Source: an uncultured Nitrospinaceae bacterium
GTDB taxonomy: Bacteria; Nitrospinota; Nitrospinia; Nitrospinales; VA-1
Length of the DNA: 23,446 bases
Direction: 5' to 3'
Assembly (NCBI GenBank): GCA_913043155.1
Contig: CAJWLY010000005.1
Location: 1 to 23,446, forward strand
Shown here piece by piece: positions 7,204 to 21,220 of the stretch. A model generated the notes under the pieces. That model searched no databases. It was given only the letters and a program-made list of their open reading frames with translations, and was not told the origin of the DNA. Within the stretch, counting starts at the first letter, position 1. Every line of letters starts with the position of its first letter. Both the position numbers and the translations under genes were made by a program.

Positions 7204-8073
7204 ATGGATCAAACACTGACCGAAGAACAGGCGCAGCCTAGGAAAGAAAATAGAGGACCTCGTTTCCTCATCGGAATTCGTGTCGGCGACACCCTTAAAT
7301 CGGAATTGTTCGATCCGGTTAAACTGAACCTTCGCGTGGGTATGCAGGTGATGGCGGAAACCAATTATGGGACTCAACTAGGCGTAGTTGCTTCTAATAA
7401 GGTCCCCAACTTAAGTAAAAAGAATAAGAAATTCCAGCGCGTACTCAGAGTCGCCAATGAAAACGATTTTCAGGCTCAAACGAGAAAATTGGACCAGGAA
7501 AAACGGGCTAAGGAGCTGTGTGCGAGAAAAATTCTGGAACTGAAATTGCCGATGAACCTAAGTCGAGTGGTTCATATCCAAAAGCTGAAAAAGACCATTT
7601 TTTTCTTCACTGCCGAAGGCCGCGTAGACTTCCGTCAGCTCATCAAGGAACTGGGATCCGGCCTACGACACCGTATCGAAATGAAACAGGTGGGCGTGCG
7701 CGACGAGGCCCGATCGATTACTGGCTACGGGGTATGTGGGGAAGCCCTTTGCTGTTCTAGTTTCCTTCAGGACTTCACTCCGGTCACCATCCGCATGGCC
7801 AAGGATCAGGGACTCGTCCTCAACCCAACCAAAATTTCAGGGGTATGCGGACGTCTTATGTGTTGCCTGCAGTATGAACATGAAATTTACAAAAATCTCA
7901 TCAAAGACATGCCCAAGGTCAACCGCAAGATCCAGACTCCGGACGGGCCCGGCAAGGTCCTGAACAATGACATCCTGAAGCAAAATATCCTTGTCCGGCT
8001 CGACGATGAAAGTATAATGACCTATCCTTTAGACGAGTTGAGGGAGTTCCTGAAGCCAAAGAACCGGGAATAG
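7204..8073 (+). CDS. ricT: PSP1 C-terminal domain protein (RicT/YaaT-like)
   Basis: 289 aa. Conserved Cys pairs GVCGEALCC and GVCGRLMCCLQYE are typical of PSP1/YaaT. Gene order holB then yaaT is conserved as in Bacillus. Confidence 0.75.
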   Translation: MDQTLTEEQAQPRKENRGPRFLIGIRVGDTLKSELFDPVKLNLRVGMQVMAETNYGTQLGVVASNKVPNLSKKNKKFQRVLRVANENDFQAQTRKLDQEKRAKELCARKILELKLPMNLSRVVHIQKLKKTIFFFTAEGRVDFRQLIKELGSGLRHRIEMKQVGVRDEARSITGYGVCGEALCCSSFLQDFTPVTIRMAKDQGLVLNPTKISGVCGRLMCCLQYEHEIYKNLIKDMPKVNRKIQTPDGPGKVLNNDILKQNILVRLDDESIMTYPLDELREFLKPKNRE

Positions 8074-8372
8074 TTTCCACCAAAAACCAAGCCTTCTTAA
8101 AAACCACAGCCTACGCGCTGAAAGCCCATTGGAAAAAAATATTAGGCGCTCTCCTACTGGATACTCGCAAAGATTCAATCGCTGGGATGGGTTCACTTTT
8201 TCAAAAACACCCCTCATCCCCTTCTAGAACGGGAGTGATGGGCTCCGACCTTTTATCAATTCGTAACATCTTTTAAAAAATGATCTGAGAAAAACTTAAT
8301 CTTGAGAATCATCAAGTCTTCAAAATTTTCCGCTTCATCTGAAACCAAAAAACTCTCAATCGCTCAATCTCC

Positions 8373-10325
8373 ATGAAAAGTTTAGGAAAAAAGTTTTTTC
8401 TCACAACACCTATCTATTACGTAAACGATGTCCCGCACATCGGGCACGCCTATACAACCATTGCCGCCGATGTGGTGGCGCGCTACAGGCGGCTCGAAGG
8501 GTATGAGGTGATCTTTCTCACAGGAACCGACGAACACGGACAAAAAGTCCTGCAAGCCGCGCGCGAACTCAAGGTGGAACCACAGGAACACGTCGACAAA
8601 TTACACCAGCGATTCAAGGAACTTTGGCTGAGGTTCAATATCTCCAATGATGATTTTATCCGCACCACCGAAGAACGGCACAAGGCTCTCGTTTGCGACA
8701 TCCTACAGCGGTTACACGACAAAGGAGAGATCTATAAGGATAGCTACGAGGGCTGGTACTGCATGCCCTGCGAACGGTTCTGGACAGAAAAAGACCTTAT
8801 CCAAGGAAACTGCCCAGAATGCAAACGCAAGGTAGATAAAATCCAGGAGCACAACTATTTTTTCAAGATGGGGCAGTACCAGGATTGGCTGAAGAATTAC
8901 ATCCGAACGGACGAACGATTCATACAACCGGTGTCACGCCGTAATGAAGTGCTTGGTTTTCTCGACAAACCGCTCGGGGACTTGTGCATCTCGCGCCCGG
9001 TAGAGCGCCTCCCTTGGGGCATCCCCCTGCCCTTCGACAAAAAATACGTCACCTACGTCTGGTTCGACGCACTTATCAACTATATCTCCATTCATGGATC
9101 GCTCAACGAGATCAGGAGAAGCGGATTCTGGCCCGCAAACCATCATCTACTGGGCAAGGACATCCTTACCACCCACGCCGTTTACTGGTCCACAATGCTC
9201 AAGGCGATCGGACTCGATCCGGCGCTCAATCTTTTCGCCCATGGCTGGTGGACGGTGAACGGACAAAAAATGTCGAAGTCCATTGGTAACGTGGTGGAAC
9301 CCAACAGGTTAATTGAACAGTTCGGCGTCGATGCCATTCGGTACTTTCTGATGCGCGAGGTACCGTTTGGGATGGATGGAGACTTTTCGCACAAGGCGCT
9401 GATCGGACGTGTCAATAGCGACCTCGCAAATAACCTGGGAAATCTGCTCAACCGAACGATTAATATGATGAAAAGGTATCATGACTGCATAATTCCCGAA
9501 CCGACTGAACCTAATGAAGACGCTGATCTAAAAAATGAATTCCAAAAGGGAATCGACACTGTTCATAATCTTTATGACAGCCTGGCCTACAATAAAATTC
9601 TCGAGCGCGTCTGGCATTTGATTGACGTGACCAATAAATATATCGACCACCAGGGCCCGTGGACCCTGGTCAAGTCGGAGGACGGAAAAGAACGTCTCGC
9701 AACGGTCATGTACAACACCGCGGAGTGCCTGCGTATAATCGCGATCCTCGTTTATCCGTTCATGCCAAAAAGCGCCGAAACGATGATGCAACAATTGGGA
9801 ATCGAAATTTCCATTAAGGAACAGGGGCTGGAGACAATCAAAACATGGGGTGGATTAAAACCAGGAACAAGGGTGCAGCCGGGAAACCAGCTGTTCCCAC
9901 GCATTGAGGACAAAGAAGCAGAGAAACTTCTCGCTGCCGTAGAGGTAGCCGAAAAGCTGGACTCAAAAAAAGGAGCTGAAGTAATGGAAGAGGGAACTTC
10001 CGAACAGGTGAGCATTGACGAGTTCATGAAAATCGACCTACGAACAGGGAAAATCATTGCAGCAGAAAAGGTCGAAAAATCAAAAAAACTTCTGCAGTTA
10101 AAAGTAGATATTGGCAGCGAGGTGCGCCAAGTGGTTGCGGGTATTGCGGAATGCTACGAACCGGAACAACTGATCGGGCGAACCGTCATTCTTGCCGCCA
10201 ACCTTAAGCCGGCGAAACTGATGGGCGTCGAGTCGCAGGGCATGGTGCTCGCCGCCAGTGAAGGCGGAAATATCACTTTGGCCGGATTCGATCTGGAACC
10301 AGGCAAAGGGATACGAGTGCGATGA
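8373..10325 (+). CDS. metG: Methionyl-tRNA synthetase with C-terminal tRNA-binding (Trbp111/EMAPII-like) domain
   Basis: 650 aa. HIGH motif (PHIGHAYT), KMSKS motif (QKMSKSIG), zinc knuckles CMPCE...CPECKRK, and a C-terminal OB-fold domain (IDLRTGKIIAAEKV...GMVLAAS). Confidence 0.96.
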   Translation: MKSLGKKFFLTTPIYYVNDVPHIGHAYTTIAADVVARYRRLEGYEVIFLTGTDEHGQKVLQAARELKVEPQEHVDKLHQRFKELWLRFNISNDDFIRTTEERHKALVCDILQRLHDKGEIYKDSYEGWYCMPCERFWTEKDLIQGNCPECKRKVDKIQEHNYFFKMGQYQDWLKNYIRTDERFIQPVSRRNEVLGFLDKPLGDLCISRPVERLPWGIPLPFDKKYVTYVWFDALINYISIHGSLNEIRRSGFWPANHHLLGKDILTTHAVYWSTMLKAIGLDPALNLFAHGWWTVNGQKMSKSIGNVVEPNRLIEQFGVDAIRYFLMREVPFGMDGDFSHKALIGRVNSDLANNLGNLLNRTINMMKRYHDCIIPEPTEPNEDADLKNEFQKGIDTVHNLYDSLAYNKILERVWHLIDVTNKYIDHQGPWTLVKSEDGKERLATVMYNTAECLRIIAILVYPFMPKSAETMMQQLGIEISIKEQGLETIKTWGGLKPGTRVQPGNQLFPRIEDKEAEKLLAAVEVAEKLDSKKGAEVMEEGTSEQVSIDEFMKIDLRTGKIIAAEKVEKSKKLLQLKVDIGSEVRQVVAGIAECYEPEQLIGRTVILAANLKPAKLMGVESQGMVLAASEGGNITLAGFDLEPGKGIRVR

Positions 10326-11713
10326 TCATAGATACGCATGCCCACCTCGACATGGACACATATGACGAGGACCGCTCGGACGTGATTCAACGCGCCCGCG
10401 ACGGCGGGGTCGATTACATCCTTAACATTGGTTGCGACATCGAAAGCAGTCTGCGTTCGCGGGAACTGGCTGAGCGTTACGATTTTATTTACGCTACCGC
10501 TGGCGTTCATCCTCATGACGTAAAAAACATCAATGGACATACCTACGATCACCTCAGGGAACTGCTCTCGCACCCGAAGATGCTCGCGCTTGGGGAAACC
10601 GGCCTCGACTTTTTCAAGAATTACTCGCCCCAGGACCAGCAAAAGGAACATTTCCGCAAACAGATTGAGTTGGCGCGCGAAGTGGGTAAGCCCATCATCG
10701 TCCATAGTCGTGATGCGAATAATGACATCACCAGCATTCTCTCCGATCACTTCCCGAAAGATCGGTCCGCGCGATCAGGGATCTTCCATTGTTTCTCTGG
10801 AGACCAAGAACTGGCCGACCGGGCGCTAGAGATGGGATTCTACATCTCGTTCTCTGGTTCGGTCACCTTCAAGAAATCGGATGAACTGCGTACAGTGGCA
10901 AAAACAATCCCTGCCGATCGCCTGTTCGTCGAAACGGATTGTCCATTCCTCGCACCGGTCCCGAAACGCGGTAAACGGAACGAACCGTCCTACGTCAATC
11001 ACATTGCCCAACGGATTGCCGAAATACGCGGGCTCACCGTTGAAGACCTTGCACGTACCACCGCCCTCAACTTCTTCGAACTGTTCGGCATCGGCAAGGA
11101 AGCTAAGACCGGGACCGTGTCTTACCAAATACGCAACTCACTCTATCTCAATCTGACGACACGATGCACCGCCGATTGCTCATTCTGTACCCGCTTGACG
11201 CGTCCGATCGTCCAAGGCTACAACCTCCAACTCGACCGAGAACCGACAACTGAAGAGGTGTGGGAATCGATCGACGACTGCACAAAATATGATGAAATTG
11301 TTTTCTGTGGATATGGCGAACCGACGTTGAGGCTCGACGTCGTCAAGGAAGTAGCAAAAAAAATCAAAACTGCAGGGGGACGCGTTAGGCTGAACACTAA
11401 CGGACACGGCAACGCAATCAACAAACGCAATATCCTGCCCGAACTCAAGGGACTGGTTGATGCGATTTCAATCAGCCTCAACGCCGACACTCCTGAGGCC
11501 TACGATGAAATCGTCCGCCCCCTACCCGGCTTGCGCGAAGGCCTCTACGACAAGGTCAAGGAGTTCATCGAGGAATCCAAAAAATACATTCCGAAAGTGC
11601 AGGCCACCATCGTAACGCATCAGGACGGCGTCAATGAAACAAAATGTGAAGATATGGCCTGCAATGAGTTCGATATCGACTACCGGCCCCGACGCTACAA
11701 CATCGTGGGTTAA
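10322..11713 (+). CDS. tatD: TatD-family metal-dependent hydrolase fused to a C-terminal radical SAM domain
   Basis: 463 aa in one continuous frame. Residues 1 to ~250 are TatD (IDTHAHLD, HSRDA, FVETDCPFLAPVP). Residues ~255 to 463 carry CTADCSFC (CX3CX2C) and the glycine-rich FCGYGEPTL SAM motif. The start overlaps the metG stop (ATGA). Confidence 0.85.
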   Translation: MIIDTHAHLDMDTYDEDRSDVIQRARDGGVDYILNIGCDIESSLRSRELAERYDFIYATAGVHPHDVKNINGHTYDHLRELLSHPKMLALGETGLDFFKNYSPQDQQKEHFRKQIELAREVGKPIIVHSRDANNDITSILSDHFPKDRSARSGIFHCFSGDQELADRALEMGFYISFSGSVTFKKSDELRTVAKTIPADRLFVETDCPFLAPVPKRGKRNEPSYVNHIAQRIAEIRGLTVEDLARTTALNFFELFGIGKEAKTGTVSYQIRNSLYLNLTTRCTADCSFCTRLTRPIVQGYNLQLDREPTTEEVWESIDDCTKYDEIVFCGYGEPTLRLDVVKEVAKKIKTAGGRVRLNTNGHGNAINKRNILPELKGLVDAISISLNADTPEAYDEIVRPLPGLREGLYDKVKEFIEESKKYIPKVQATIVTHQDGVNETKCEDMACNEFDIDYRPRRYNIVG

Positions 11714-11771
11714 GCTCTCCGTTTCATCTCGCACAGAGCCTCAAAAACGCAGAAAAAAGGGGGGACAAATA

Positions 11772-12164
11772 ATGAACTGGATTCCTACAGGCGCGGTTTT
11801 CAGCGGGTTCAGCGTACTGCTTGGAGCAGTCGGGGCGCACGGACTCAAAAATATTCTCTCCGAACAAAAACTCAAGGCTTTCCACACGGCAACTCAGTAC
11901 ATGGGATACCACGGTCTAGCACTGATACTCGTCGGTATTCTTTGCCTGCATCTTGGAGCCGACAGGGCGAAAGCACTTAAGAAAGTCGGCATCCTGTTTC
12001 TGGCGGGTATTCTCATGTTCTCTGGAAGTATCTATATCCTCACCTTCGATGGGCCCCGTTTATTTGGTCCGGTCACCCCACTCGGCGGACTCTCCTTTAT
12101 AGCCGGCTGGTTCACCTTCGCCTGGGTGATGCGTGGGCATTCCAATAAAAACTATAATCCCTAA
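11772..12164 (+). CDS. DUF423/YgdD-family small inner-membrane protein
   Basis: 130 aa from an ATG preceded by an AAAAAAGGGGGG Shine-Dalgarno. GAVGAHGL...AFHTATQYMGYHGLAL...FSGSIYIL...VTPLGGLSFIAGW closely parallels E. coli YgdD. The ORF-track N-terminal extension (11634) overlaps the previous gene and is rejected. Confidence 0.82.
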   Translation: MNWIPTGAVFSGFSVLLGAVGAHGLKNILSEQKLKAFHTATQYMGYHGLALILVGILCLHLGADRAKALKKVGILFLAGILMFSGSIYILTFDGPRLFGPVTPLGGLSFIAGWFTFAWVMRGHSNKNYNP

Positions 12165-12190: not shown

Positions 12191-13039
12191 TTACCCATTC
12201 TCTCGCCCCAGCCTTTTTCCTACAGGAGAGAAGATATCTTTGGAACGTTTCCGGTAGGAGTACCACACAAGCAAGGCCAATATTCCCGTGGCAGAGGCGG
12301 ACGGGACAAGCGCGACACGATCCCAAGCCGGACGAAAATCAATCTCTCCTCCGATCTCACCAGTATAGTGCTTCAGCATTTCGGCATATTCGATCATGAG
12401 ATGCACGGGATAAACGGTCTCGGTGCTCTCGGCCGAACGATGCACTGGCACCTCGAATGATTTTTCCTCACCGCCGCGAATGGTGAATCCCATCATCTGC
12501 CCAAACTCGTCCGCGACCAGTCCAGGGGGAAGAAGAAGCATCAGCCGAACATTTTTAAACGACGACGAGTTATTACGGAGAAAAATTTTTAGTAGCGATC
12601 CATCTCCCTGCCGGGTCGTTCGGATTTCTCCATCGATAACTGACTTCACTGGCTCGCGGAAATAAAATGAGTCGGTATGAATCTGCGTAAGTGGCGCTTC
12701 GTCTTTGGCGCCGGTTTTATATTCCGCCATAACCACGAGTGGGTAGCGTCCCGTTCTCAACACCGGCGGATGGTCGGTGTTCTCCAGCGTGACCCCCTGC
12801 CCCGGATCAAGTCTGACGATCTTATCCATCATCACCATGCTGTGATGAAAATGGAACATAGGGTGTACATCATAGAGCGGCTCACGTCCGTTATTCTTCA
12901 CCGTCAAACGAACCCACACCCTACCGTCATCATCCACCAACGCCTGCGTGGTTAGTTGCAGCGGGGACGCCCACACAGAAGAGGAAAACCCAGCTGTTAA
13001 AAAAAACACCAGCAATAGACCTGCGCAAAGTTTCTCCAT
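12191..13039 (-). CDS. Exported hypothetical protein: signal peptide, two beta-rich (Ig/CARDB-like) repeats, C-terminal transmembrane anchor
   Basis: Start taken at the third in-frame Met (MEKLCAGLLLVFFLTAGFSSSVWA^SP), which gives a plausible signal peptide. The ORF-track start is 13075. Two similar segments (VRLTVKNNGREPLYDV and LKIFLRNNSSSFKNVRLML). C-terminal hydrophobic ATGILALLVWYSY followed by RKRSK. Confidence 0.55.
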   Translation of the reverse strand: MEKLCAGLLLVFFLTAGFSSSVWASPLQLTTQALVDDDGRVWVRLTVKNNGREPLYDVHPMFHFHHSMVMMDKIVRLDPGQGVTLENTDHPPVLRTGRYPLVVMAEYKTGAKDEAPLTQIHTDSFYFREPVKSVIDGEIRTTRQGDGSLLKIFLRNNSSSFKNVRLMLLLPPGLVADEFGQMMGFTIRGGEEKSFEVPVHRSAESTETVYPVHLMIEYAEMLKHYTGEIGGEIDFRPAWDRVALVPSASATGILALLVWYSYRKRSKDIFSPVGKRLGRENG

Positions 13040-13146
13040 AGAAGGTGATTCTATCATGGTTTCACACGGAGCCATCTTGCTACCTGTCTATTGGGGCCGA
13101 AAATTGGTATACTTATCCAAACCGTAACACATGTAGGGGGTGGGTC

Positions 13147-13908
13147 ATGGATGGCGCAATCGTTGCCCTAATAATACTGGGTCTGCTTCTCTTCAGCGCA
13201 CTCAAAATTCTGCGTGAATACGAACGTGGTGTCATTTTTCTTCTGGGCCGATTCTGGAAAGTGAAGGGTCCGGGACTCATCATCGTCATTCCCGGAATTC
13301 AGAAGATGATCAAGGTAAGCCTGCGCACGGTAGTCATGGACGTACCACCGCAGGACATCATCACCCGTGACAATGTCACAGTTAAGGTGAACGCGGTTTT
13401 ATATTTCCGCGTCATCGAGGCCAGAAAGGCCATCATCGAGGTCGAAGATTACCTTTACGCCACCTCCCAGCTTGCGCAAACAACGTTACGAAGTATCCTG
13501 GGCCAAAGCCAGTTGGACGATCTGCTTTCGAAGCGCGACGAGATCAACGCCCACCTACAGAAAGCGATCGATGAACAAACCGAGCCCTGGGGCGTAAAGG
13601 TCGCAAACGTGGAAGTCAAAAACGTCGACCTACCCCAGGAGATGCAGCGTGCCATCGCCAAACAGGCCGAAGCGGAGCGGGAACGTCGAGCCAAAGTCAT
13701 CAACGCCAAGGGCGAATACGAAGCGGCAGAAAAACTGAGCCAGGCCGCGGACACCATCGGGGCGCACCCTCCGGCCCTGCAACTGAGATTCCTGCAAACC
13801 CTGCTAGACATCTCCACCGACCGCAACACCACCATGTTCGTGCCCATCCCGCTGGAATTGTTCGAGGGCTTTTCCAAACAGAAAAAGCCAGGCTCCGATG
13901 GCCTCTGA
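13147..13908 (+). CDS. SPFH/band-7 (stomatin/QmcA-like) membrane protein
   Basis: N-terminal transmembrane helix ([19 protein letters not shown]), then an SPFH core ([31 protein letters not shown]...) and a C-terminal coiled coil ([15 protein letters not shown]). ATG at 13147 preceded by GGGGGTGGG. The GTG at 13045 in the ORF track is rejected. Confidence 0.85.
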
Positions 13909-14032
13909 CCATAACCCGCATCAGGCCCTCGAAATAAACTATTAGGGGCCCACCCTTACTTCCCTTTTGCTTGGGGTTTGCCAGAGGATGCATTAGAATA
14001 AATAAGGATACGATATTCATCGAGCCGCTCCA

Positions 14033-17000
14033 ATGGAACCTCACGCCTTCATTGAGAATTTCCTGAACCGAGTACGCCGCCTGCATACGCGGACCCAGTT
14101 ACTTCACGGGTTCAACATAATAATAGCTTATATTTCAATAAGTTATCTAACAGCCAACCTGCTGGCTTGGTTTTATCCCGCAGCCCATGAATGGTCCTGG
14201 TTGGTGGGAGCCCTGTTTCTAGGGGGATTGGGTTACATAGTCTTCCGCTACATCCTCCAGATCGGATTCGTGTCCTTTTCGCTTGACGATGCGGCGCTGT
14301 TGACGGAATTGCGGCACCCCCACTTAAACAATTCTCTCATCAATTCGTGCCAGTTGGCGCGTCGGCTGAAGCGCCCTGAAGCAAAAAAACAATCATCCCT
14401 GGAATTTATCCACGAACTGCACCGCCGTACCCGCCTGACCATCGAAGCAATCGATCCAAGATCGGTAATTGACCGGAGTGACTTGGTGTCAAGCCGCAAC
14501 TGGTTTGCTGGGGCTTTAGGTTCGCTTATTCTTCTGGCGTTGTTTCTTCCCGATTTTCTAACACAGGGATACAACCGCTGGATGCCTCCCCCTAAACCGC
14601 ACCAAGCCGCAATTGACAAATCGGTAAAACCAGACCTTTTGGAACCCACTGCCGCTAAAACTGCCTATGCGATCGACTCCTTGAGTCTGACTTTTCACTT
14701 TCCAGCGTATACGAGAATGAAGACAAAAACTGTAAAATCTTCTGACGGAAAGATCCACGTCCTTCCCGGAAGCGAGGTGAAAATTTCAGCCCGCACCAAC
14801 CTCCCCACAACCGGGGGCGACCTGATATTTAACGGCAAGGACAACTTCGTCATGAGCATGGAGGATCCAGCGAACCTTAACGGACGCCTCCTTATAAAGG
14901 AAAAAGGCTTCTACCAATTCCGAATCAAAGATGCGGTTGGAAAAAAACATCTACTCGCGCAAAAGTATCCGGTAACGCTCGGCCAAGACCGCTCGCCCAG
15001 CATCGTTTTATTCCTCGCCAACCCAAAACCTGTTTACTTCAACACCGACAAGGTCCAGCTGTTTTATGAAGGGAGCGACGACTTCGGTATCGGGTCCGTC
15101 GAACTGGTGGCCTACATCAACGGAAAAATCCAGCGCTTTCCGGTCAAACGGTTCAAAGAACACGAGAAGGAAGCCAAGGGCGACTACACTTGGGCCCTAT
15201 CGCAAATCGAGCTTCATCCGGGTGACGAGGTCCAGTACTACCTTGAGATTAAAGACAACGACAACGTACGAGGTCCGAACACCGGCCAATCCGAGGCATA
15301 CACCTTCACCATTTTCGACTCAGCAAAAGAACTGGAGAGCTTAATCGCCTTACAGGAAGAGTTGACCGAGAAAATGATCGCACTCCTGGCAACGGGGCTA
15401 GTTAAAGGCGCGTCGCTAGATAACTCGGTCGATGATCCGATGCAGTGGGAAAAACTTTTCACCACCAGCACCGACGCCCTGATCGAGATCGTAAGCCTGG
15501 CCCAACGCATTCGCGACCGGGGAAAAACCATCGACCGGTTCCCGCAACCTTACCTCAACCTGCTCAATAACGTTGCCTCCGGTCTGGCACGCATTCGACA
15601 GGAGCAGATTGAAGCAATCAACCAGATTCGGGACACAATCCATAAACCAACGCAGGCAAAATTTGACTCCTCTTCCCCTTACCGCACCATCAACAACCGA
15701 ATGATCGGTCACCTGGAAAACGATATTCTCTTCTTGGTCAAAATGACCAATCGGCAGAAGTTGGACCGGGTGGTGGGTCTGGAAGAGAAGCTCAACAACC
15801 TGACCCAAACCCTGCGCCAAGAGTTTGAGAAACTGAAGGACCGCAAAACCAAACCACGCCCAAACGAGTTGAAGAGCAAAATTAAACAGATACGCGACAC
15901 CCTGCAAAAAATCATGGACCAGCTGGCCCGCCAGACCCAGTCCATGCCCGACGAATTTTTAAATTCGGCCGCCTTCAAACGCCTGAGCATGGACTCGTTC
16001 GCCGCTTCGCTGGAACGGATGATGGACATGGTGAACCGCGGCCAGTTCGAGGAAGCAATGGAGGAGTTGAAAAAAGTCTCTGAGGACCTGCAACAGCTAG
16101 CCAATCAATTCAACCAAGCACGGTCGGAAATGGACGACCTTCTCGATATGCAGATCGCGGAAGCGCTGGACGACTCCATCGAGAAGTTGGATAAGCTGGA
16201 AGCTCGACAACAGAGGCTGGTTGAAGACACCACCCAAATCAATCAGGAACTGAGGGAACAACAATCAAAACGGTTTGAAAAGGAGCTGGACAATTTCTTT
16301 AAAGAACTCCAACACAACGTAGATGCCATCCGCTCTCTTTTCAAAGAGGACGAAGAGTATCTCAACAGGCACCGTGTGATGAAGCAACTTGAAAAATTGA
16401 TGGCTCAAGAAACAAAACTCAACCGAAAAATAAATGAACTAGGCCAGAAAACCGTCGATTCGAGCCTCACAGAGAGGTTGGATCAGAATTTCCAAACCCT
16501 CAACGAAGCGCGCAAAGAACTTTCCAAATTGACCCATGAAAAAGACTCTCTGCGTGTGAATGAGTTTCAGCGGTTCAGGGAAGGGTTGCCGCAGCTTATG
16601 AAAAAATACGACACGCTCCGAGAACTAGCCAGGTTGCGGGATCTCACCGAATTCGGCAACCTGTTCAAAAAAGCCTACCCCGAAGTGTTTCGCTGGCAAA
16701 ATAACCTGCGCACCACGCCCAATCGGAGGGAGGACATTGGTGAACAATTGGACAACGACCTAAAGCAGGTCACCCGGCTCAACAACGAAATTTCAAAAAA
16801 GTTAGGATCGATGATGCGATCGATCCGCAAGAACTACGATTCATCCATCACCGAAAAACAAAAAAAGAAACTGGGACAAATGGCTCAACAAGAAAGTCAG
16901 ATGCGCAAGGAAGTAGAGGAGTTGACACGCCGGTTTGACCGTTTAAACCAAGAAAACCCGATGGTCCCATCCCAGCTTTCGAAGCAGATGGGGCAAACGG

Positions 17001-17368
17001 GGCGTCGCATGAAACGCGCCGAGCGAAACCTCAAAGAACAGAATATCCGCGAAAGCATAGAGGCAGAAAACCATGCACTTAAGGGATTGCGCGAAACCCG
17101 TGATCTACTCAAGGAAATGAAAAACTCTAACGGCCAAGCCCAACAGGCGCAACAGAAAACACCGAACCGACTCGGCACTGGCAGCCGACTTGACTCACGG
17201 CGTGGTGGAGGAGCACGTATGCGGAATGAGCGCGTGCTGTTGCCTTCCGAAGATCAATATCAGGTACCCAGAGAATTTCGCGAGGAAATTCTCAACGCAA
17301 TGAAAAAGCAAACGCCGAAAGACTATCAGCGCATGGTCATGGAATATTACAAGAACCTAGTGAAATGA
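14033..17368 (+). CDS. Giant membrane-anchored coiled-coil protein (possibly DUF4175/TIGR02302-like), function unknown
   Basis: 1111 aa. Has 2-3 N-terminal transmembrane helices, a beta-rich region at roughly residues 200-420, about 600 aa of charged heptad-like helix (E/K/Q/R/L rich), and a Q/G-rich low-complexity tail (NGQAQQAQQKTPNRLGTGSRLDSRRGGGARMR). An in-frame stop lies 27 nt upstream of the ATG. Contiguous with the MoxR locus. Confidence 0.75.
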   Translation: MEPHAFIENFLNRVRRLHTRTQLLHGFNIIIAYISISYLTANLLAWFYPAAHEWSWLVGALFLGGLGYIVFRYILQIGFVSFSLDDAALLTELRHPHLNNSLINSCQLARRLKRPEAKKQSSLEFIHELHRRTRLTIEAIDPRSVIDRSDLVSSRNWFAGALGSLILLALFLPDFLTQGYNRWMPPPKPHQAAIDKSVKPDLLEPTAAKTAYAIDSLSLTFHFPAYTRMKTKTVKSSDGKIHVLPGSEVKISARTNLPTTGGDLIFNGKDNFVMSMEDPANLNGRLLIKEKGFYQFRIKDAVGKKHLLAQKYPVTLGQDRSPSIVLFLANPKPVYFNTDKVQLFYEGSDDFGIGSVELVAYINGKIQRFPVKRFKEHEKEAKGDYTWALSQIELHPGDEVQYYLEIKDNDNVRGPNTGQSEAYTFTIFDSAKELESLIALQEELTEKMIALLATGLVKGASLDNSVDDPMQWEKLFTTSTDALIEIVSLAQRIRDRGKTIDRFPQPYLNLLNNVASGLARIRQEQIEAINQIRDTIHKPTQAKFDSSSPYRTINNRMIGHLENDILFLVKMTNRQKLDRVVGLEEKLNNLTQTLRQEFEKLKDRKTKPRPNELKSKIKQIRDTLQKIMDQLARQTQSMPDEFLNSAAFKRLSMDSFAASLERMMDMVNRGQFEEAMEELKKVSEDLQQLANQFNQARSEMDDLLDMQIAEALDDSIEKLDKLEARQQRLVEDTTQINQELREQQSKRFEKELDNFFKELQHNVDAIRSLFKEDEEYLNRHRVMKQLEKLMAQETKLNRKINELGQKTVDSSLTERLDQNFQTLNEARKELSKLTHEKDSLRVNEFQRFREGLPQLMKKYDTLRELARLRDLTEFGNLFKKAYPEVFRWQNNLRTTPNRREDIGEQLDNDLKQVTRLNNEISKKLGSMMRSIRKNYDSSITEKQKKKLGQMAQQESQMRKEVEELTRRFDRLNQENPMVPSQLSKQMGQTGRRMKRAERNLKEQNIRESIEAENHALKGLRETRDLLKEMKNSNGQAQQAQQKTPNRLGTGSRLDSRRGGGARMRNERVLLPSEDQYQVPREFREEILNAMKKQTPKDYQRMVMEYYKNLVK

Positions 17369-18933
17369 AGCGCATCGTTTACATCCTGCTGGCATTATCC
17401 CTTGAGCTGACAGCCATCGGCCCGGCAAGTGGGACGCCCACAGCCACCCCCCCTGACGAAGTATTCGCCGGGTATAAGCTGATCGAACAGTGGCGCATTG
17501 AAGAGGCCGGTACCCTGGCCGAAAAATTGCTGGACAAATATCCCGAATCGGGAGACGCCCATTTCCTTAGTGCGCGGATCGAATTTTTAAGAGGAAACTA
17601 TAAATACGCCAAAAAAATTCTCGGCCGCGTTGGGGACAACCACGCTCCAGTCCGCGAATTCAAAACACTGGTCCAGGACACCCATGATGCGACAAAATTG
17701 TTCATCTCCCGGGAGTCGGAACATTTCATCTTTCACTTCGAGCAGGGCCCCGATGAAATTCTAGTACATTACGCTGAAGAGGTTTTGGAAAAATCATATG
17801 AAGTCCTCGGCAAGCTCCTAAATTACTACCCTCAACAAAAAGTACTGGTCGAATTCTATCCTGACCGGAAACCTTTTTCCCGCATCTCTCCGCTAACGCT
17901 CCAAGACATCCTCACATCAGGCACGGTGGCGCTTTGCAAGTACAACCGCATCATGATGATCTCCCCGGGGTCCCTAGTGCGCGGCTATAACTGGATGGAC
18001 ACACTGAGCCATGAATACACCCATTACCTCATGACGAGAAAAAGTCGTAACAACCTTCCGCTGTGGATGCATGAGGGAATCGCAAAATTCCTTGAAGGGC
18101 GATGGCGAAATAGCGAAGAATACCTAACCCCCATCATGGAGACGATACTTGCAGGCGGATTGAACAACGATTACCTGATCTCCCTCGACAGCATGATGCC
18201 TTCGCTGGCCAAGCTAAAAACAACCGAAGACGTACAATTAGCCTACGCTGAAGTGTCGACTATGATTGAGTACCTAGCAGAACTCCGGGGGGATGAGGTG
18301 ATCGCCGCCATTCTTGACGACTTGGCCGGAGGCGAACCGTTCGATTCAGCTTTTACAAGAAGGTTGGGCATGGATCTCGACGACTTTCAAAAAGAGTGGA
18401 AGCAATTTGCAAAGCAAAAAAATCTAAAAACCGTTCCCGGACTCAAAATTCCGGGAATTCGCTTCAGAGCTGATCGCTCTATAACAGAAGAGGACAGCAA
18501 AGAGTATCGCGAGGTCGGCGCACGCAAAACCCAGGACTTGACTTTTCTAGGAGACATCCTCAGGTCGCGAGACTTTAACCGGGCGGCGATCGTAGAGTAT
18601 CGTCGTGCCATTGACCAAGCGAAAACCTTTTCTCCCATTCTGCACAACAAACTTGCGAAGACCTTTTTTCTGACACGAGAGTTTGATCAGGCCGAGGCAC
18701 TCCTGAAAAAAAGCCTCAGTCATTATCCCATGTTCCATACCACCCTCTCTAGCCTGGGTGAACTCTATTTCGAAACCGGAAACATGGAAAAATCGCTCGA
18801 CTTCTACGAACAAGCAGTGCGGGTCAACCCTTTCAATCCGTTCGCGCACATCAGGCTGATGGCAATCTACCAAAAGCTGGGGCTGAACAAAGAAAAAGAA
18901 TTGCAGGCAAAACTGTTTGGATATATAGATTGA
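17365..18933 (+). CDS. Secreted HEXXH...E (Peptidase_MA_2-like) plus TPR-repeat protein
   Basis: 522 aa. N-terminal signal-like segment MKRIVYILLALSLELTAIGPASG. Zinc motif LSHEYTHYLM, followed by E in WMHEGIAKF 17 residues later. C-terminal TPR-like repeats (...YFETGNMEKSLDFYEQAVRVNPFNPFAHIRLMAIYQKLG). ATGA overlap with the upstream gene. Confidence 0.78.
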   Translation: MKRIVYILLALSLELTAIGPASGTPTATPPDEVFAGYKLIEQWRIEEAGTLAEKLLDKYPESGDAHFLSARIEFLRGNYKYAKKILGRVGDNHAPVREFKTLVQDTHDATKLFISRESEHFIFHFEQGPDEILVHYAEEVLEKSYEVLGKLLNYYPQQKVLVEFYPDRKPFSRISPLTLQDILTSGTVALCKYNRIMMISPGSLVRGYNWMDTLSHEYTHYLMTRKSRNNLPLWMHEGIAKFLEGRWRNSEEYLTPIMETILAGGLNNDYLISLDSMMPSLAKLKTTEDVQLAYAEVSTMIEYLAELRGDEVIAAILDDLAGGEPFDSAFTRRLGMDLDDFQKEWKQFAKQKNLKTVPGLKIPGIRFRADRSITEEDSKEYREVGARKTQDLTFLGDILRSRDFNRAAIVEYRRAIDQAKTFSPILHNKLAKTFFLTREFDQAEALLKKSLSHYPMFHTTLSSLGELYFETGNMEKSLDFYEQAVRVNPFNPFAHIRLMAIYQKLGLNKEKELQAKLFGYID

Positions 18934-18961
18934 TAATAGTTAATTGATTCAGGGAGATCTT

Positions 18962-19948
18962 ATGAAAGATCTGGAGTTGGCCCAAGAGTTATTGAGTGCG
19001 AAAAAGCGCGTCACCGGCGAAATACGAAAAGTGATCGTGGGGCAGGATGAGGTGATCGAAAACCTGTTGATTGCGTTGTTCTGCAAAGGACACTGCCTTT
19101 TTGTTGGCGTCCCCGGGCTGGCCAAAACCTTGTTGGTAAGCACTCTAGCCCGGGTACTGAATCTCAACTTCAGCAGGATCCAGTTCACACCCGACCTGAT
19201 GCCCTCAGACATCACCGGAACGGATATCCTTTACCAAGATCAGGCCACTAACAAGCGCGAATTCCGGTTCATCAAGGGGCCAGTTTTTGCCCACATCATT
19301 CTCGCGGACGAGATTAATCGCACACCACCAAAGACCCAGGCTGCCCTACTCCAAGCCATGCAGGAGCAGCAGGTGACCGTCGGCGGGAACACCTACCAAC
19401 TCGACCAACCCTTCCAAGTCTTCGCCACACAAAATCCGATTGAGCACGAAGGCACCTATCCCTTGCCCGAAGCACAATTGGACCGGTTCATGTTCCTAGT
19501 CAACGTTAGCTACCCCACCATGGAGCAGGAGGTTAACATTGCCATATCCACCACTTCGGGATTCCACCCGGACCTGGACGTAGTTCTGGATGCCGCACAT
19601 GTTCGTGAGTTGCAAACGCTGGTTCCGCGCGTTCCCGTGTCAGAACACGTCGCGGAATATGCGGTGCGGCTGGTGCAAAGCTCGCGCCCGAGCAAGAATG
19701 GGGCGACACCGGACTTCATAAACGAATGGATCGACTGGGGAGCGGGTCCGCGCGCGTCGCAATACCTTATTCTTGGGGCAAAGGCCCACGCCCTCATGGA
19801 CAACCGCGTAACCACAACCGTGGATGACATCAAAAACGTCGCCCGGCAGGTGCTCGAACACCGGCTCATTCTCAACTTCAAAGCCGAAGCTGAAAATATC
19901 ACCACCACCGATATTATCGAAAAACTTCTACAGGCAGTTAAAGCGTAA
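18962..19948 (+). CDS. MoxR-family AAA+ ATPase
   Basis: Walker A GVPGLAKT, Walker B ILADEINR, sensor ATQNP, helix-2 insert. These are classic MoxR/RavA features. ATG at 18962 with an AGGGAGA Shine-Dalgarno 5 nt upstream. The TTG at 18944 in the ORF track is rejected. Confidence 0.9.
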   Translation: MKDLELAQELLSAKKRVTGEIRKVIVGQDEVIENLLIALFCKGHCLFVGVPGLAKTLLVSTLARVLNLNFSRIQFTPDLMPSDITGTDILYQDQATNKREFRFIKGPVFAHIILADEINRTPPKTQAALLQAMQEQQVTVGGNTYQLDQPFQVFATQNPIEHEGTYPLPEAQLDRFMFLVNVSYPTMEQEVNIAISTTSGFHPDLDVVLDAAHVRELQTLVPRVPVSEHVAEYAVRLVQSSRPSKNGATPDFINEWIDWGAGPRASQYLILGAKAHALMDNRVTTTVDDIKNVARQVLEHRLILNFKAEAENITTTDIIEKLLQAVKA

Positions 19949-19975
19949 TCAGGAGATGTAAGTGAGGATCTTTTT

Positions 19976-20599
19976 CTAAACCAGGTTGGCCGTTTTCCAG
20001 TCCACTTCCACATTCTGAGTTGTTCCCGAGCGGGTCTGATACACCACGTGTCCATTAGACTCGCCGTACAGGAACAAGTCGCGCGTAATTTCAACATCCT
20101 TCTGGCAGTATTCGACAATTTTATCTATCTTACCCTCTCGGTACCATTGCAAAGAAACTAGTCCGTCGGCACTTTTTTGCGTCTTGAGCGTGTTCTGAGC
20201 TAGGTGGTCCAAGCTGAGCCTGTATCCCAGTTTTTTCTTAATATCAATCAGCATATCGAAGGTGCGGATTTTCTGCAGGTCAAAGTCGGAATACGGTTGA
20301 AGCACAGTATAGTCGAACCCGATCACGTTGAATCCGACCACAAGATCAGCAGAGCGGAGTTTTTCCGCTAGTTGCGAAGCATCCTTTTCCAGGTAGTTGA
20401 AAAACTGCTGTTCCAAACTATCCCACACCACTCCGACAGCCAGTTTCATCAAGTGGATGTTTTCCCAACCGCCCACCTCATGGGCACTTTTTTGAGTTTC
20501 CAAGTCGAAAAAGAGCGCGCGTACTCCGGATGACATCCGCTGAGGGGTTTTGGGTGCAATTTTCTCGGAACCTGCAAAAAGATCAAGTTGCTCGGACAT
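19976..20599 (-). CDS. DEDDy-type 3'-5' exonuclease (RNase D/DnaQ-like fold), standalone
   Basis: 207 aa. Exo I FFDLET, Exo II GFNVIGFDYTVL, Exo III YCQKDVEITRDLF. GAGG Shine-Dalgarno 5 nt upstream of the ATG. Convergent with MoxR. Confidence 0.7.
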   Translation of the reverse strand: MSEQLDLFAGSEKIAPKTPQRMSSGVRALFFDLETQKSAHEVGGWENIHLMKLAVGVVWDSLEQQFFNYLEKDASQLAEKLRSADLVVGFNVIGFDYTVLQPYSDFDLQKIRTFDMLIDIKKKLGYRLSLDHLAQNTLKTQKSADGLVSLQWYREGKIDKIVEYCQKDVEITRDLFLYGESNGHVVYQTRSGTTQNVEVDWKTANLV

Positions 20600-21148
20600 G
20601 CGACCTCAAAAGGGATCTTGTTGGAAGAACTCCAATTTAGCACCCCATAGCGCCAAATCAAGAGGAAATTTGAACATTAAGTAACTCATTAAAAACAAAA
20701 AGTTTTTTTGCGTTCAGCCCCCCCCAGAGTTTCTGCACCCGATCGCTCCAAATATGCGTAATTCCTTGAACTGGGTAACCCCCTTCCGAATGAAGTATGA
20801 AGAACGGTGAAGTACATCAAAATGACGATCGAATGGAGCGGGTGTTAGCAAGATTAACGACATCGCCAAAGTGATGTCTCTCGCCTTGACATGCAAAAAG
20901 TTGGCGAGGAAAGAGACGGTTGGAAATGCAGTACCAGTTCATCCTTTGGTTGATTCCGACCAACATTAAATCGGAGTTAGTCTTCATCATCCTATTTCCC
21001 TTCACGAAGTCTAGAGTGAGCGATCGTCAGAAACAGAGATTTCCCGGACAACCTCCTGCGAATTTAATTGTCAGCAAAGGTTGATTCTCCCAACCACTTT
21101 CTCACTTCTTATTTTCTCTTTTCAGAGTTTTCTCAGGGACGGTTTTTT

Positions 21149-21177
21149 TTGACAACCTCCGCAGGCTGTGATAAAAG
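21149..21177 (+). promoter_or_regulatory. Putative sigma70-type promoter for sucCD
   Basis: TTGACA (21149-21154), 17-nt spacer, TAAAAG (21172-21177) with TG upstream. T-rich tract immediately 5'. About 45 nt upstream of the sucC ATG. Confidence 0.3.
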
Positions 21178-21220
21178 TTCCCTTTCCCAGCGACATTCGT
21201 TTTAAATTCTTAATCTAGCC

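Follow-up and report, generated by a model that had tools for sequence, protein, structure and literature searches.

The question raised by this locus is what a large membrane-anchored protein, encoded directly ahead of a peptidase and an AAA+ ATPase, might be doing in the cell envelope of a member of the Nitrospinota, the main marine nitrite oxidisers. The stretch analysed, here called the window, comprises 23,446 nucleotides (positions 1 to 23,446, forward strand, of contig CAJWLY010000005.1 in assembly GCA_913043155.1) from an uncultured Nitrospinaceae bacterium, and the gene in question (14033..17368, +) encodes a protein of 1111 amino acids (aa) belonging to DUF4175, a very large family found in many phyla, whose members are envelope proteins of ~1000-1100 residues with no function assigned. 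In the Nitrospinota, DUF4175, a predicted exported TPR zinc-peptidase and a MoxR ATPase form a universally conserved envelope module, and here it is tentatively proposed that the DUF4175 protein may well be the periplasmic scaffold or adaptor of this three-gene module.

The gene is real and well conserved, and not a compositional accident. Its open reading frame (ORF) of 1111 codons opens with an ATG and has an in-frame stop upstream at 14003, so the ATG at 14033 is the earliest possible start, and M1 is invariant in an alignment of 28 orthologues (44-70% identity). The stop codon overlaps the ATG of the peptidase gene by 4 bp (ATGA), and both the clean start and stop and the 4-bp coupling named in the original prediction were thus found. 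Among 5.8 billion proteins searched, full-length relatives ranged from 99% to ~45% identity; the named ones were all from the Nitrospinota (Candidatus Nitromaritima at 70%, Nitrospina at ~45-55%), and nearly all full-length orthologues in this phylum have 1089-1125 aa. Similarly, the GTDB loci having an orthologue were all from the Nitrospinota (79/79), the best at 95% identity in the metagenome-assembled genome (MAG) of an uncultured Nitrospinaceae bacterium. The alignment of the 28 orthologues has just 12 insert columns over 1111 positions, with many invariant P, F, Y, G and N residues in the helical region and its minimum column entropy (0.54 bits) at the C-terminus.

By profile comparison, the protein belongs to the DUF4175 family and is related to the alphaproteobacterial TIGR02302 proteins only distantly. 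Scanning the protein against Pfam and NCBIfam placed DUF4175 (PF13779) above its gathering threshold (52.3 bits against 27.3, E=3.4e-14, in three stretches) and the NCBIfam equivalog TIGR02302 (aProt_lowcomp) below its cut-off (26 bits against 394.3, a partial match over aa 587-858). The earlier comparison with DUF4175/TIGR02302 is therefore right in its first half and wrong in its second, the host being, moreover, a member of the Nitrospinota and not an alphaproteobacterium. The Pfam DUF4175 profile is matched in patches only, over aa 200-426 and then over aa 585-857 of the helical region, which by itself scores 32.4 bits against the same cut-off of 27.3. Hydropathy and an AlphaFold2 model give the N-terminal transmembrane (TM) helices followed by a long extramembrane region (~800-1100 aa) that belong to DUF4175 members, and hundreds of representatives of the Pfam family have the same architecture and length class. 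In a profile search of 1.84 billion cluster representatives (clusters at 50% identity), the family comprised 8117 clusters at E<=1e-3, 3853 at E<=1e-10 and 859 at E<=1e-30, the best matches being mostly 1000-1170 aa long and aligned near end to end. The named distant matches are few (Deltaproteobacteria, Brocadiales/Brocadiaceae and WOR-3), and the taxonomic spread beyond the Nitrospinota is read from these.

The Nitrospina orthologues are already labelled in NCBI as "DUF4175 family protein", and their neighbour as "peptidase MA family metallohydrolase"; the protein thus adds one more member to a kind that is known but uncharacterised. The family is known to the databases and is not a new kind of system; the gene triad is a useful lead rather than a surprising discovery. 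No paper on the function of DUF4175 or on the DUF4175-peptidase-MoxR triad was found in the literature searched, where DUF4175 and TIGR02302 are named in passing only. The family profile found no sequence-related solved structure in the PDB, only marginal matches to designed helical bundles, and a Pfam scan of each segment at E<=10 found no BatD, vWA, cadherin or other domain. PADLOC assigned the protein to no defence system, giving only weak coiled-coil matches to LmuB, JetC and ZorA (E 2e-5 to 7e-4) and no match for the peptidase, MoxR or the upstream SPFH protein, and Rfam had no match in the window.

Linkage to the two downstream genes was counted over the 79 GTDB loci from the Nitrospinota, including only those with enough flank for the gene concerned. 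The peptidase gene lies directly downstream on the same strand in all 71 loci with room for it (71/71), and the MoxR gene follows, also on the same strand, in 60/60. In loci L002 and L003, the DUF4175-peptidase-MoxR order is kept though the flanks differ and SPFH is absent. The SPFH gene stands immediately upstream in 38 loci; L013, L026, L046 and L077 have the three genes turned round in place, in reverse orientation to the flank of SPFH, an unknown gene and DUF423, which puts SPFH at the opposite end of the block and on the opposite strand. Because the block has been inverted as a unit in these four loci, it is taken to be an evolutionary unit, with SPFH just a frequent neighbour. Locus L076 (CP070799.1, the chromosome of Nitrospinaceae bin1391) matched only residues 204-778 of the DUF4175 protein, at 8001-9722, with no peptidase or MoxR gene detected in the 8 kb downstream flank; this copy may be disrupted or masked, or reflect an assembly problem.

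The module recurs in other phyla. A Deltaproteobacteria MAG (L085, L089) has the identical triad, with a DUF4175 protein 25% identical to that of the window; the peptidase of L085 also has a signal peptide, and no DUF58 or vWA gene stands beside its MoxR gene. A second distant clade, probably Brocadiales, has the DUF4175-peptidase pairing in 5/9 assessable loci of a metagenome scan as well as in L004, the peptidase gene following DUF4175 directly in L093, L094 and L096 and after a spacer of ~1 kb in L097, L099 and L004; the flanks of L090, L095, L098 and L100 lack it. Among more distant homologues, a DUF4159 gene lies upstream in L086 (6463-7131, two genes away) and L087 (8272-8979, 22 nt away), and L088 has a homologue without an obvious partner. 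This gene order points to DUF4159 as a second, different recurrent partner of the family.

The first, co-transcribed partner (17365..18933, +) is a Peptidase_MA_2 zinc-metallopeptidase of 522 aa; it is predicted to be exported from its signal-peptide-like N-terminus, and its catalytic domain lies between TPR repeats (Pfam, AlphaFold2). The Peptidase_MA_2 domain scores 57.5 bits against a cut-off of 32.4 and contains the zinc motif HEYTH (216-220) followed by HEG with E237, which is the HExxH plus downstream Glu of a gluzincin. The pattern HE[YF]xH...W[ML]HEG is conserved in the peptidase orthologues, as well as in L004 and L085, and since the HExxH...E residues are so conserved, the enzyme is likely active. 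Foldseek with its AlphaFold2 model and a PDB sequence search gave TPR matches only, with no informative peptidase relative, and the homologue search was saturated by Nitrospinota orthologues. The third gene of the block (18944..19948, +) encodes a MoxR-type AAA+ ATPase with AAA_3 (Pfam, 6.1e-63) and AAA_lid_2 domains. No DUF58, vWA or DUF4159 gene was found among the ORFs of the window or in the orthologous loci L001 and L002. The original prediction had contrasted MoxR/Bat-like loci elsewhere with a different operon context here; this fails for MoxR, which stands two genes downstream and does so in every assessable Nitrospinota locus, and holds in that the block has a TPR metallopeptidase and lacks DUF58, vWA and DUF4159.

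The four-part architecture seen earlier in the translation was recovered in every part, with all quoted peptides located, and was refined here with hydropathy, an AlphaFold2 model built on the 28-sequence alignment (mean predicted local distance difference test, pLDDT, 75.9; predicted template modelling score, pTM, 0.43, at which the arrangement between domains is unreliable) and alignments taking in homologues at 20-25% identity, from which the family-wide motifs are given. Kyte-Doolittle hydropathy peaks at ~27-47, ~57-80 and ~158-178, a few residues more N-terminal than the three TM helices first placed at 35-60, 62-85 and 165-185. The protein begins with a basic N-terminal helix, TM1 (~27-47), a short loop and TM2 (~57-80), together aa 1-80 (14033..14272, +), modelled as helices 2-47 and 52-79. 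These are followed by a conserved helical loop (aa 81-157, 14273..14503, +) having 13 K/R, modelled as helical over 84-145 and predicted from its charge bias to be cytoplasmic. The loop between TM2 and TM3 contains the family-wide motif AALL.E...P.LNN.LINS.QL (AL.IE...P.L.N.LINS.QL with distant homologues included), with A88, L89, Q107 and L108 kept down to ~21% identity. TM3 (aa 158-178, 14504..14566, +) has the top hydropathy peak (2.01) and lies inside the modelled helix 149-171/173-183. A variable juxtamembrane linker (aa 179-213, 14567..14671, +) comes next, with pLDDT <50 for 187-209, where disorder is predicted, and the highest column entropy of the alignment.

The beta-rich module first sketched at ~200-420, whose quoted peptides lie at aa 249-256, 324-336, 356-369 and 399-408, is modelled with strands only across aa 214-426, as two all-beta sandwiches. 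Immunoglobulin (Ig)-like sandwich 1 (aa 214-316, 14672..14980, +) is supported by AlphaFold2 strands, Foldseek and invariant residues; it opens with the family motif (GD)I.L.Y.YP.YTG, and P224, Y226, G239 and G246 are invariant in distant homologues. Ig-like sandwich 2 (aa 323-426, 14999..15310, +), also modelled by AlphaFold2, gives the best match to the Pfam DUF4175 profile and contains the acidic motifs DDFG (349-352) and YYLE..DND..GP (402-415), the latter Y.LE..DND.VSGPK in distant alignments; at ~21% identity, D349, D350, G352 and D408 never vary and E405, N409 and D410 hardly do. This acidic site may bind a metal or ligand, and the DND motif could be read as cadherin-like, a reading for which the per-segment Pfam scan (E<=10) gave no supporting domain. 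With the full model, Foldseek matched the beta module to generic tandem Ig-like and complement C3 MG domains in the PDB (E ~1e-4).

The helical region (aa 430-1034, 15320..17134, +) had been described as ~600 residues of coiled coil with heptad character. It is all-helical in the model, with 16 amphipathic helices of 16-74 aa joined by short loops, and most helices are amphipathic with a period of 3.35-3.65; helices 549-602 and 706-779, the longest of all, lack the 3.5-residue signal, so that the heptad character is local only, and a 3.5-residue register sustained over hundreds of residues of unbroken helix, as in a canonical long coiled coil, was not found. The region is better read as a predicted rod of ~4 four-helix bundles, the long helices possibly being common to neighbouring bundles. 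Its resemblance to the talin, vinculin and alpha-catenin rods is a structural and mechanical analogy only, with no sequence relationship; the bundle matches are generic, and the best are to designed bundles. Internal repeats were sought with hhalign, and none was found among the helices or from one Ig domain to the other. Landmarks are LE.DILFL..M.NRQK (561-576), PDEFLN (639-644) and G..EEA (670-675), of which PDEFLN, along with GDLE.A, is kept at 20-25% identity.

After the helices comes a low-complexity linker rich in Q, G and R (aa 1035-1066, 17135..17230, +; R 23%, G 19%, pLDDT <50), predicted to be disordered, whose counterparts in distant homologues are G/M/P/Q-rich. In the model, the disorder spans 1034-1079, and 1080-1110 forms two short low-confidence helices. 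The family-wide C-terminal motif (aa 1067-1111, 17231..17365, +) holds the entropy minimum of 0.54 bits and invariant residues, and reads V..LPSED.Y.VP.EFR.EIL.AMKK.TP..Y...V.EYY..LV, or V.IPSE..YKVPKEFR.EIL.AMKE..P..Y..L...YY..L in its distant form. At ~21% identity, V1068, P1071, P1079, R1083, P1095, Y1105 and Y1106 do not change; the DUF4159-linked homologues still retain the core ..Y..L...YY..L, and the remotest homologues keep ..GY..DY..LI..YY..L. The Q/G-rich tail and conserved-looking C-terminus noticed in the translation thus lie at aa 1035-1064 and 1075-1111, and the last ~45 residues are the best conserved of the protein, even at ~21% overall identity. In some distant homologues much of the helical rod is replaced, by a huge P/Q/G/N-rich spacer in P0312 (1447 aa) and by a Q/E/M-rich low-complexity middle in P0287, P0296 and P0301, all of which retain both the Ig module and the YY motif at the C-terminus; outside the Nitrospinota the middle therefore tolerates drastic change.

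For topology, the N-terminus has a K+R density of 0.18 and the TM2-TM3 loop one of 0.13, against 0.05 in the TM1-TM2 loop and 0.08 after TM3, with the same bias in orthologues and distant homologues. An N-in/C-out arrangement, with ~930 periplasmic residues and a cytoplasmic loop of ~75 residues (81-157), is favoured because of this charge bias, the Ig-like domains after TM3, the signal peptide on the partner and the precedent of Borrelia BB0173, a MoxR-linked inner-membrane protein whose periplasmic domain was shown experimentally (PMC5700661).

Three known systems are informative for comparison. Bat (Bacteroides aerotolerance) operons comprise MoxR, DUF58, the vWA proteins BatA and BatB, the TPR protein BatC, and BatD. 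As in these, the MoxR AAA+ gene of the window is co-linear with membrane-anchored and TPR envelope proteins; however, the block lacks DUF58 and vWA genes, no segment matched BatD at E<=10, and its TPR protein bears a Peptidase_MA_2 catalytic domain. The TIGR02302 proteins have N-terminal TM helices, a long C-terminal region and, towards its end, low complexity rich in Gln and Gly; the present protein shares these, the last as its Q/G/R-rich disordered stretch (aa 1035-1066), but is ~260 aa longer than the 851-position model, similar to it only weakly (aa 587-858), and from the Nitrospinota, not the Alphaproteobacteria. Genes of TIGR02302 may have MoxR, DUF58 and DUF4159 genes as neighbours. 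The TIGR02302 gene RSP_0730 of Rhodobacter sphaeroides is non-essential and directly activated by CenR, in the regulon of the envelope two-component system CenKR (PMC9275681). BepA of E. coli is a periplasmic M48 metallopeptidase with TPR repeats, acting in outer-membrane protein quality control (for example PMC7950410, PMC8423444). The partner in the window is likewise a predicted exported HExxH zinc peptidase fused to TPR repeats, although of the Peptidase_MA_2 and not the M48 type, and with TPRs on both sides of the catalytic domain. No link of BepA to a DUF4175 protein or to MoxR is known.

Because the DUF4175 gene always accompanies those of the exported TPR zinc-peptidase and the MoxR ATPase in the Nitrospinota, a role of its product as a cell-envelope scaffold is probable. 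The reality of the gene, its family, its gene linkage and, by model, its domain layout are shown, and we infer the topology, the contacts with both partners and the function. The protein would position or regulate the co-translated zinc-metallopeptidase in the periplasm, where its own part would comprise, in order, two Ig-like sandwiches, ~4 four-helix bundles, the flexible G/Q/R linker and the C-terminal motif. From the cytoplasmic side, the MoxR ATPase would act on the protein during assembly or remodelling, most plausibly via the loop 81-157, which on the predicted topology is the sole conserved cytoplasmic surface open to it, and such involvement would be confined to some lineages. By analogy with MoxR/Bat clusters, BepA-type TPR-metallopeptidases and the CenKR-regulated TIGR02302 gene, the module probably belongs to envelope maintenance or to the quality control of proteins. 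The map now on hand (a putative cytoplasmic loop, two Ig-like domains, an acidic site, a bundle rod and a tethered C-terminal motif), together with candidate partners that move as one unit in the Nitrospinota, offers concrete pairs for experiment, and the vWA-less context could shed light on the way in which MoxR ATPases are tied to the envelope.

Several points weigh against the proposed scaffold. No flank of the second distant clade contains MoxR, and several family members stand alone or beside DUF4159; because of this, the peptidase-MoxR module is lineage-specific and does not define the family. The homologues of L086-L088 keep the C-terminal motif without an adjacent TPR peptidase, which rules the motif out as a docking peptide dedicated to this enzyme, and its candidacy as a TPR-docking peptide was down-weighted. 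MoxR ATPases usually pair with vWA proteins, and no vWA protein was found at the window locus or at L001. Moreover, MoxR is cytoplasmic whereas the DUF4175 protein is mostly periplasmic, on a topology drawn from the positive-inside rule only. The structures were modelled as monomers only, and with a full-model pTM of 0.43, the arrangement between domains is unreliable.

The behaviour of the two ends of the protein leaves some room for a TolA-like tether or ruler spanning the periplasm, a possible but fairly unlikely alternative in which the rod and linker would carry the C-terminal motif to a universal outer-envelope target and the peptidase would be an accessory. The target could, with similarly modest likelihood, be peptidoglycan, an outer-membrane component or the protein itself, with action independent of the peptidase. 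Consistent with a tether, the ends are conserved while the middle varies in distant homologues (P0287, P0296, P0301 and P0312), the C-terminal motif is kept without a peptidase neighbour and follows a disordered linker, and length in the Nitrospinota is tight, with few insert columns. However, the helical region of the Nitrospinota proteins is conserved residue by residue, with conserved loops, and is modelled as compact bundles, the linkage to peptidase and MoxR is invariant in this phylum, and the full model, at its low pTM, gives no end-to-end length; the likeness to TolA domain II is architectural only.

The tight translational coupling to an apparently active HExxH peptidase could also mean that the DUF4175 protein is the substrate or regulated target of that enzyme, which would cleave the linker and leave MoxR to extract or reset the membrane remnant. 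This is unlikely, as is its example of a signalling or anti-sigma-like device in which cleavage would release or inactivate a part. Exposed segments predicted to be disordered (187-209 and 1034-1079) would suit cleavage, and the conserved cytoplasmic loop could pass a signal; yet no DNA-binding protein, sigma factor or kinase was linked in any locus examined, the cytoplasmic part has only ~100 residues without a recognisable domain, and the peptidase is missing from many family loci. Doubtful to a like degree is an extension of the scaffold proposal to a previously undescribed trans-envelope machine, in which MoxR would act on the loop and a conformational change across the inner membrane, through the Ig/bundle rod, would gate or position the periplasmic zinc protease for the quality control of envelope proteins. 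If true, it would be a vWA-independent mode of MoxR action and the first function for a family of thousands.

Direct contact with a cytoplasmic MoxR would be simpler with the topology inverted, the ~930-residue C-terminal region then being a cytoplasmic coiled-coil scaffold comparable to the division proteins EzrA and AdvA. AdvA is an essential division protein of Acinetobacter baumannii, and its DUF4175 annotation is confined to the N-terminal TM region (PMC7481262), which lends this comparison some appeal and at the same time limits it. Weak SMC-like coiled-coil matches also favour an inverted protein, but they are compositional and far under any threshold, and since the positive-inside bias is conserved across the family and the tandem Ig-like domains and exported partner indicate the periplasm, this arrangement is distinctly improbable. 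A last idea, that the long ORF merely reflects compositional bias or is a low-complexity ORF peculiar to this lineage, has the E/K/Q/R/L-richness of the helical region in its favour, but conservation refutes it and leaves it practically no chance of being right: at least 79 genomes have full-length orthologues (44-99% identity), nearly without indels and with many invariant non-charged residues, the family numbers thousands of clusters, the protein passes the Pfam threshold, and its start and its coupling to the next gene are conserved.

The three-gene block runs from 14033 to 19948, and the upstream SPFH gene is a separate unit. The SPFH/Band-7 gene (13045..13908, +; Pfam) is separated from the DUF4175 gene by 124 nt containing a weak terminator-like hairpin (13943-13958), apart from which a promoter and terminator scan gave background level. 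Divergent from SPFH is an ORF of 294 aa (12191-13075, -) without a Pfam match, whose product has an N-terminus resembling a signal peptide and a TM segment at the C-terminus. This pair stays together and divergent where the three-gene block is inverted (L013, L026, L046 and L077), and the 294-aa product may be a partner of SPFH specific to this lineage, encoded where NfeD is normally found.

Further upstream, the window encodes a 463-aa fusion (10322-11713, +) of a TatD-family nuclease (TIGR00010) and a TatD-associated radical SAM protein (TIGR04038), which is also present, with the same length, in L001. The DUF423 ORF as listed (11634-12164, +) overlaps the end of this gene by 80 nt; its orthologue in L001 has 145 aa, and the start in the window is probably an internal codon. 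Downstream of the block, the interval between MoxR and sucC is variable: in L001, a 3.25-Mb Nitrospinales genome, it contains DUF8220, DCC1-like, HTTM and fliD/fliS genes that are absent from the window (L001 16002-18673 and 19891-21984, compared with 19949-21220 in the window).

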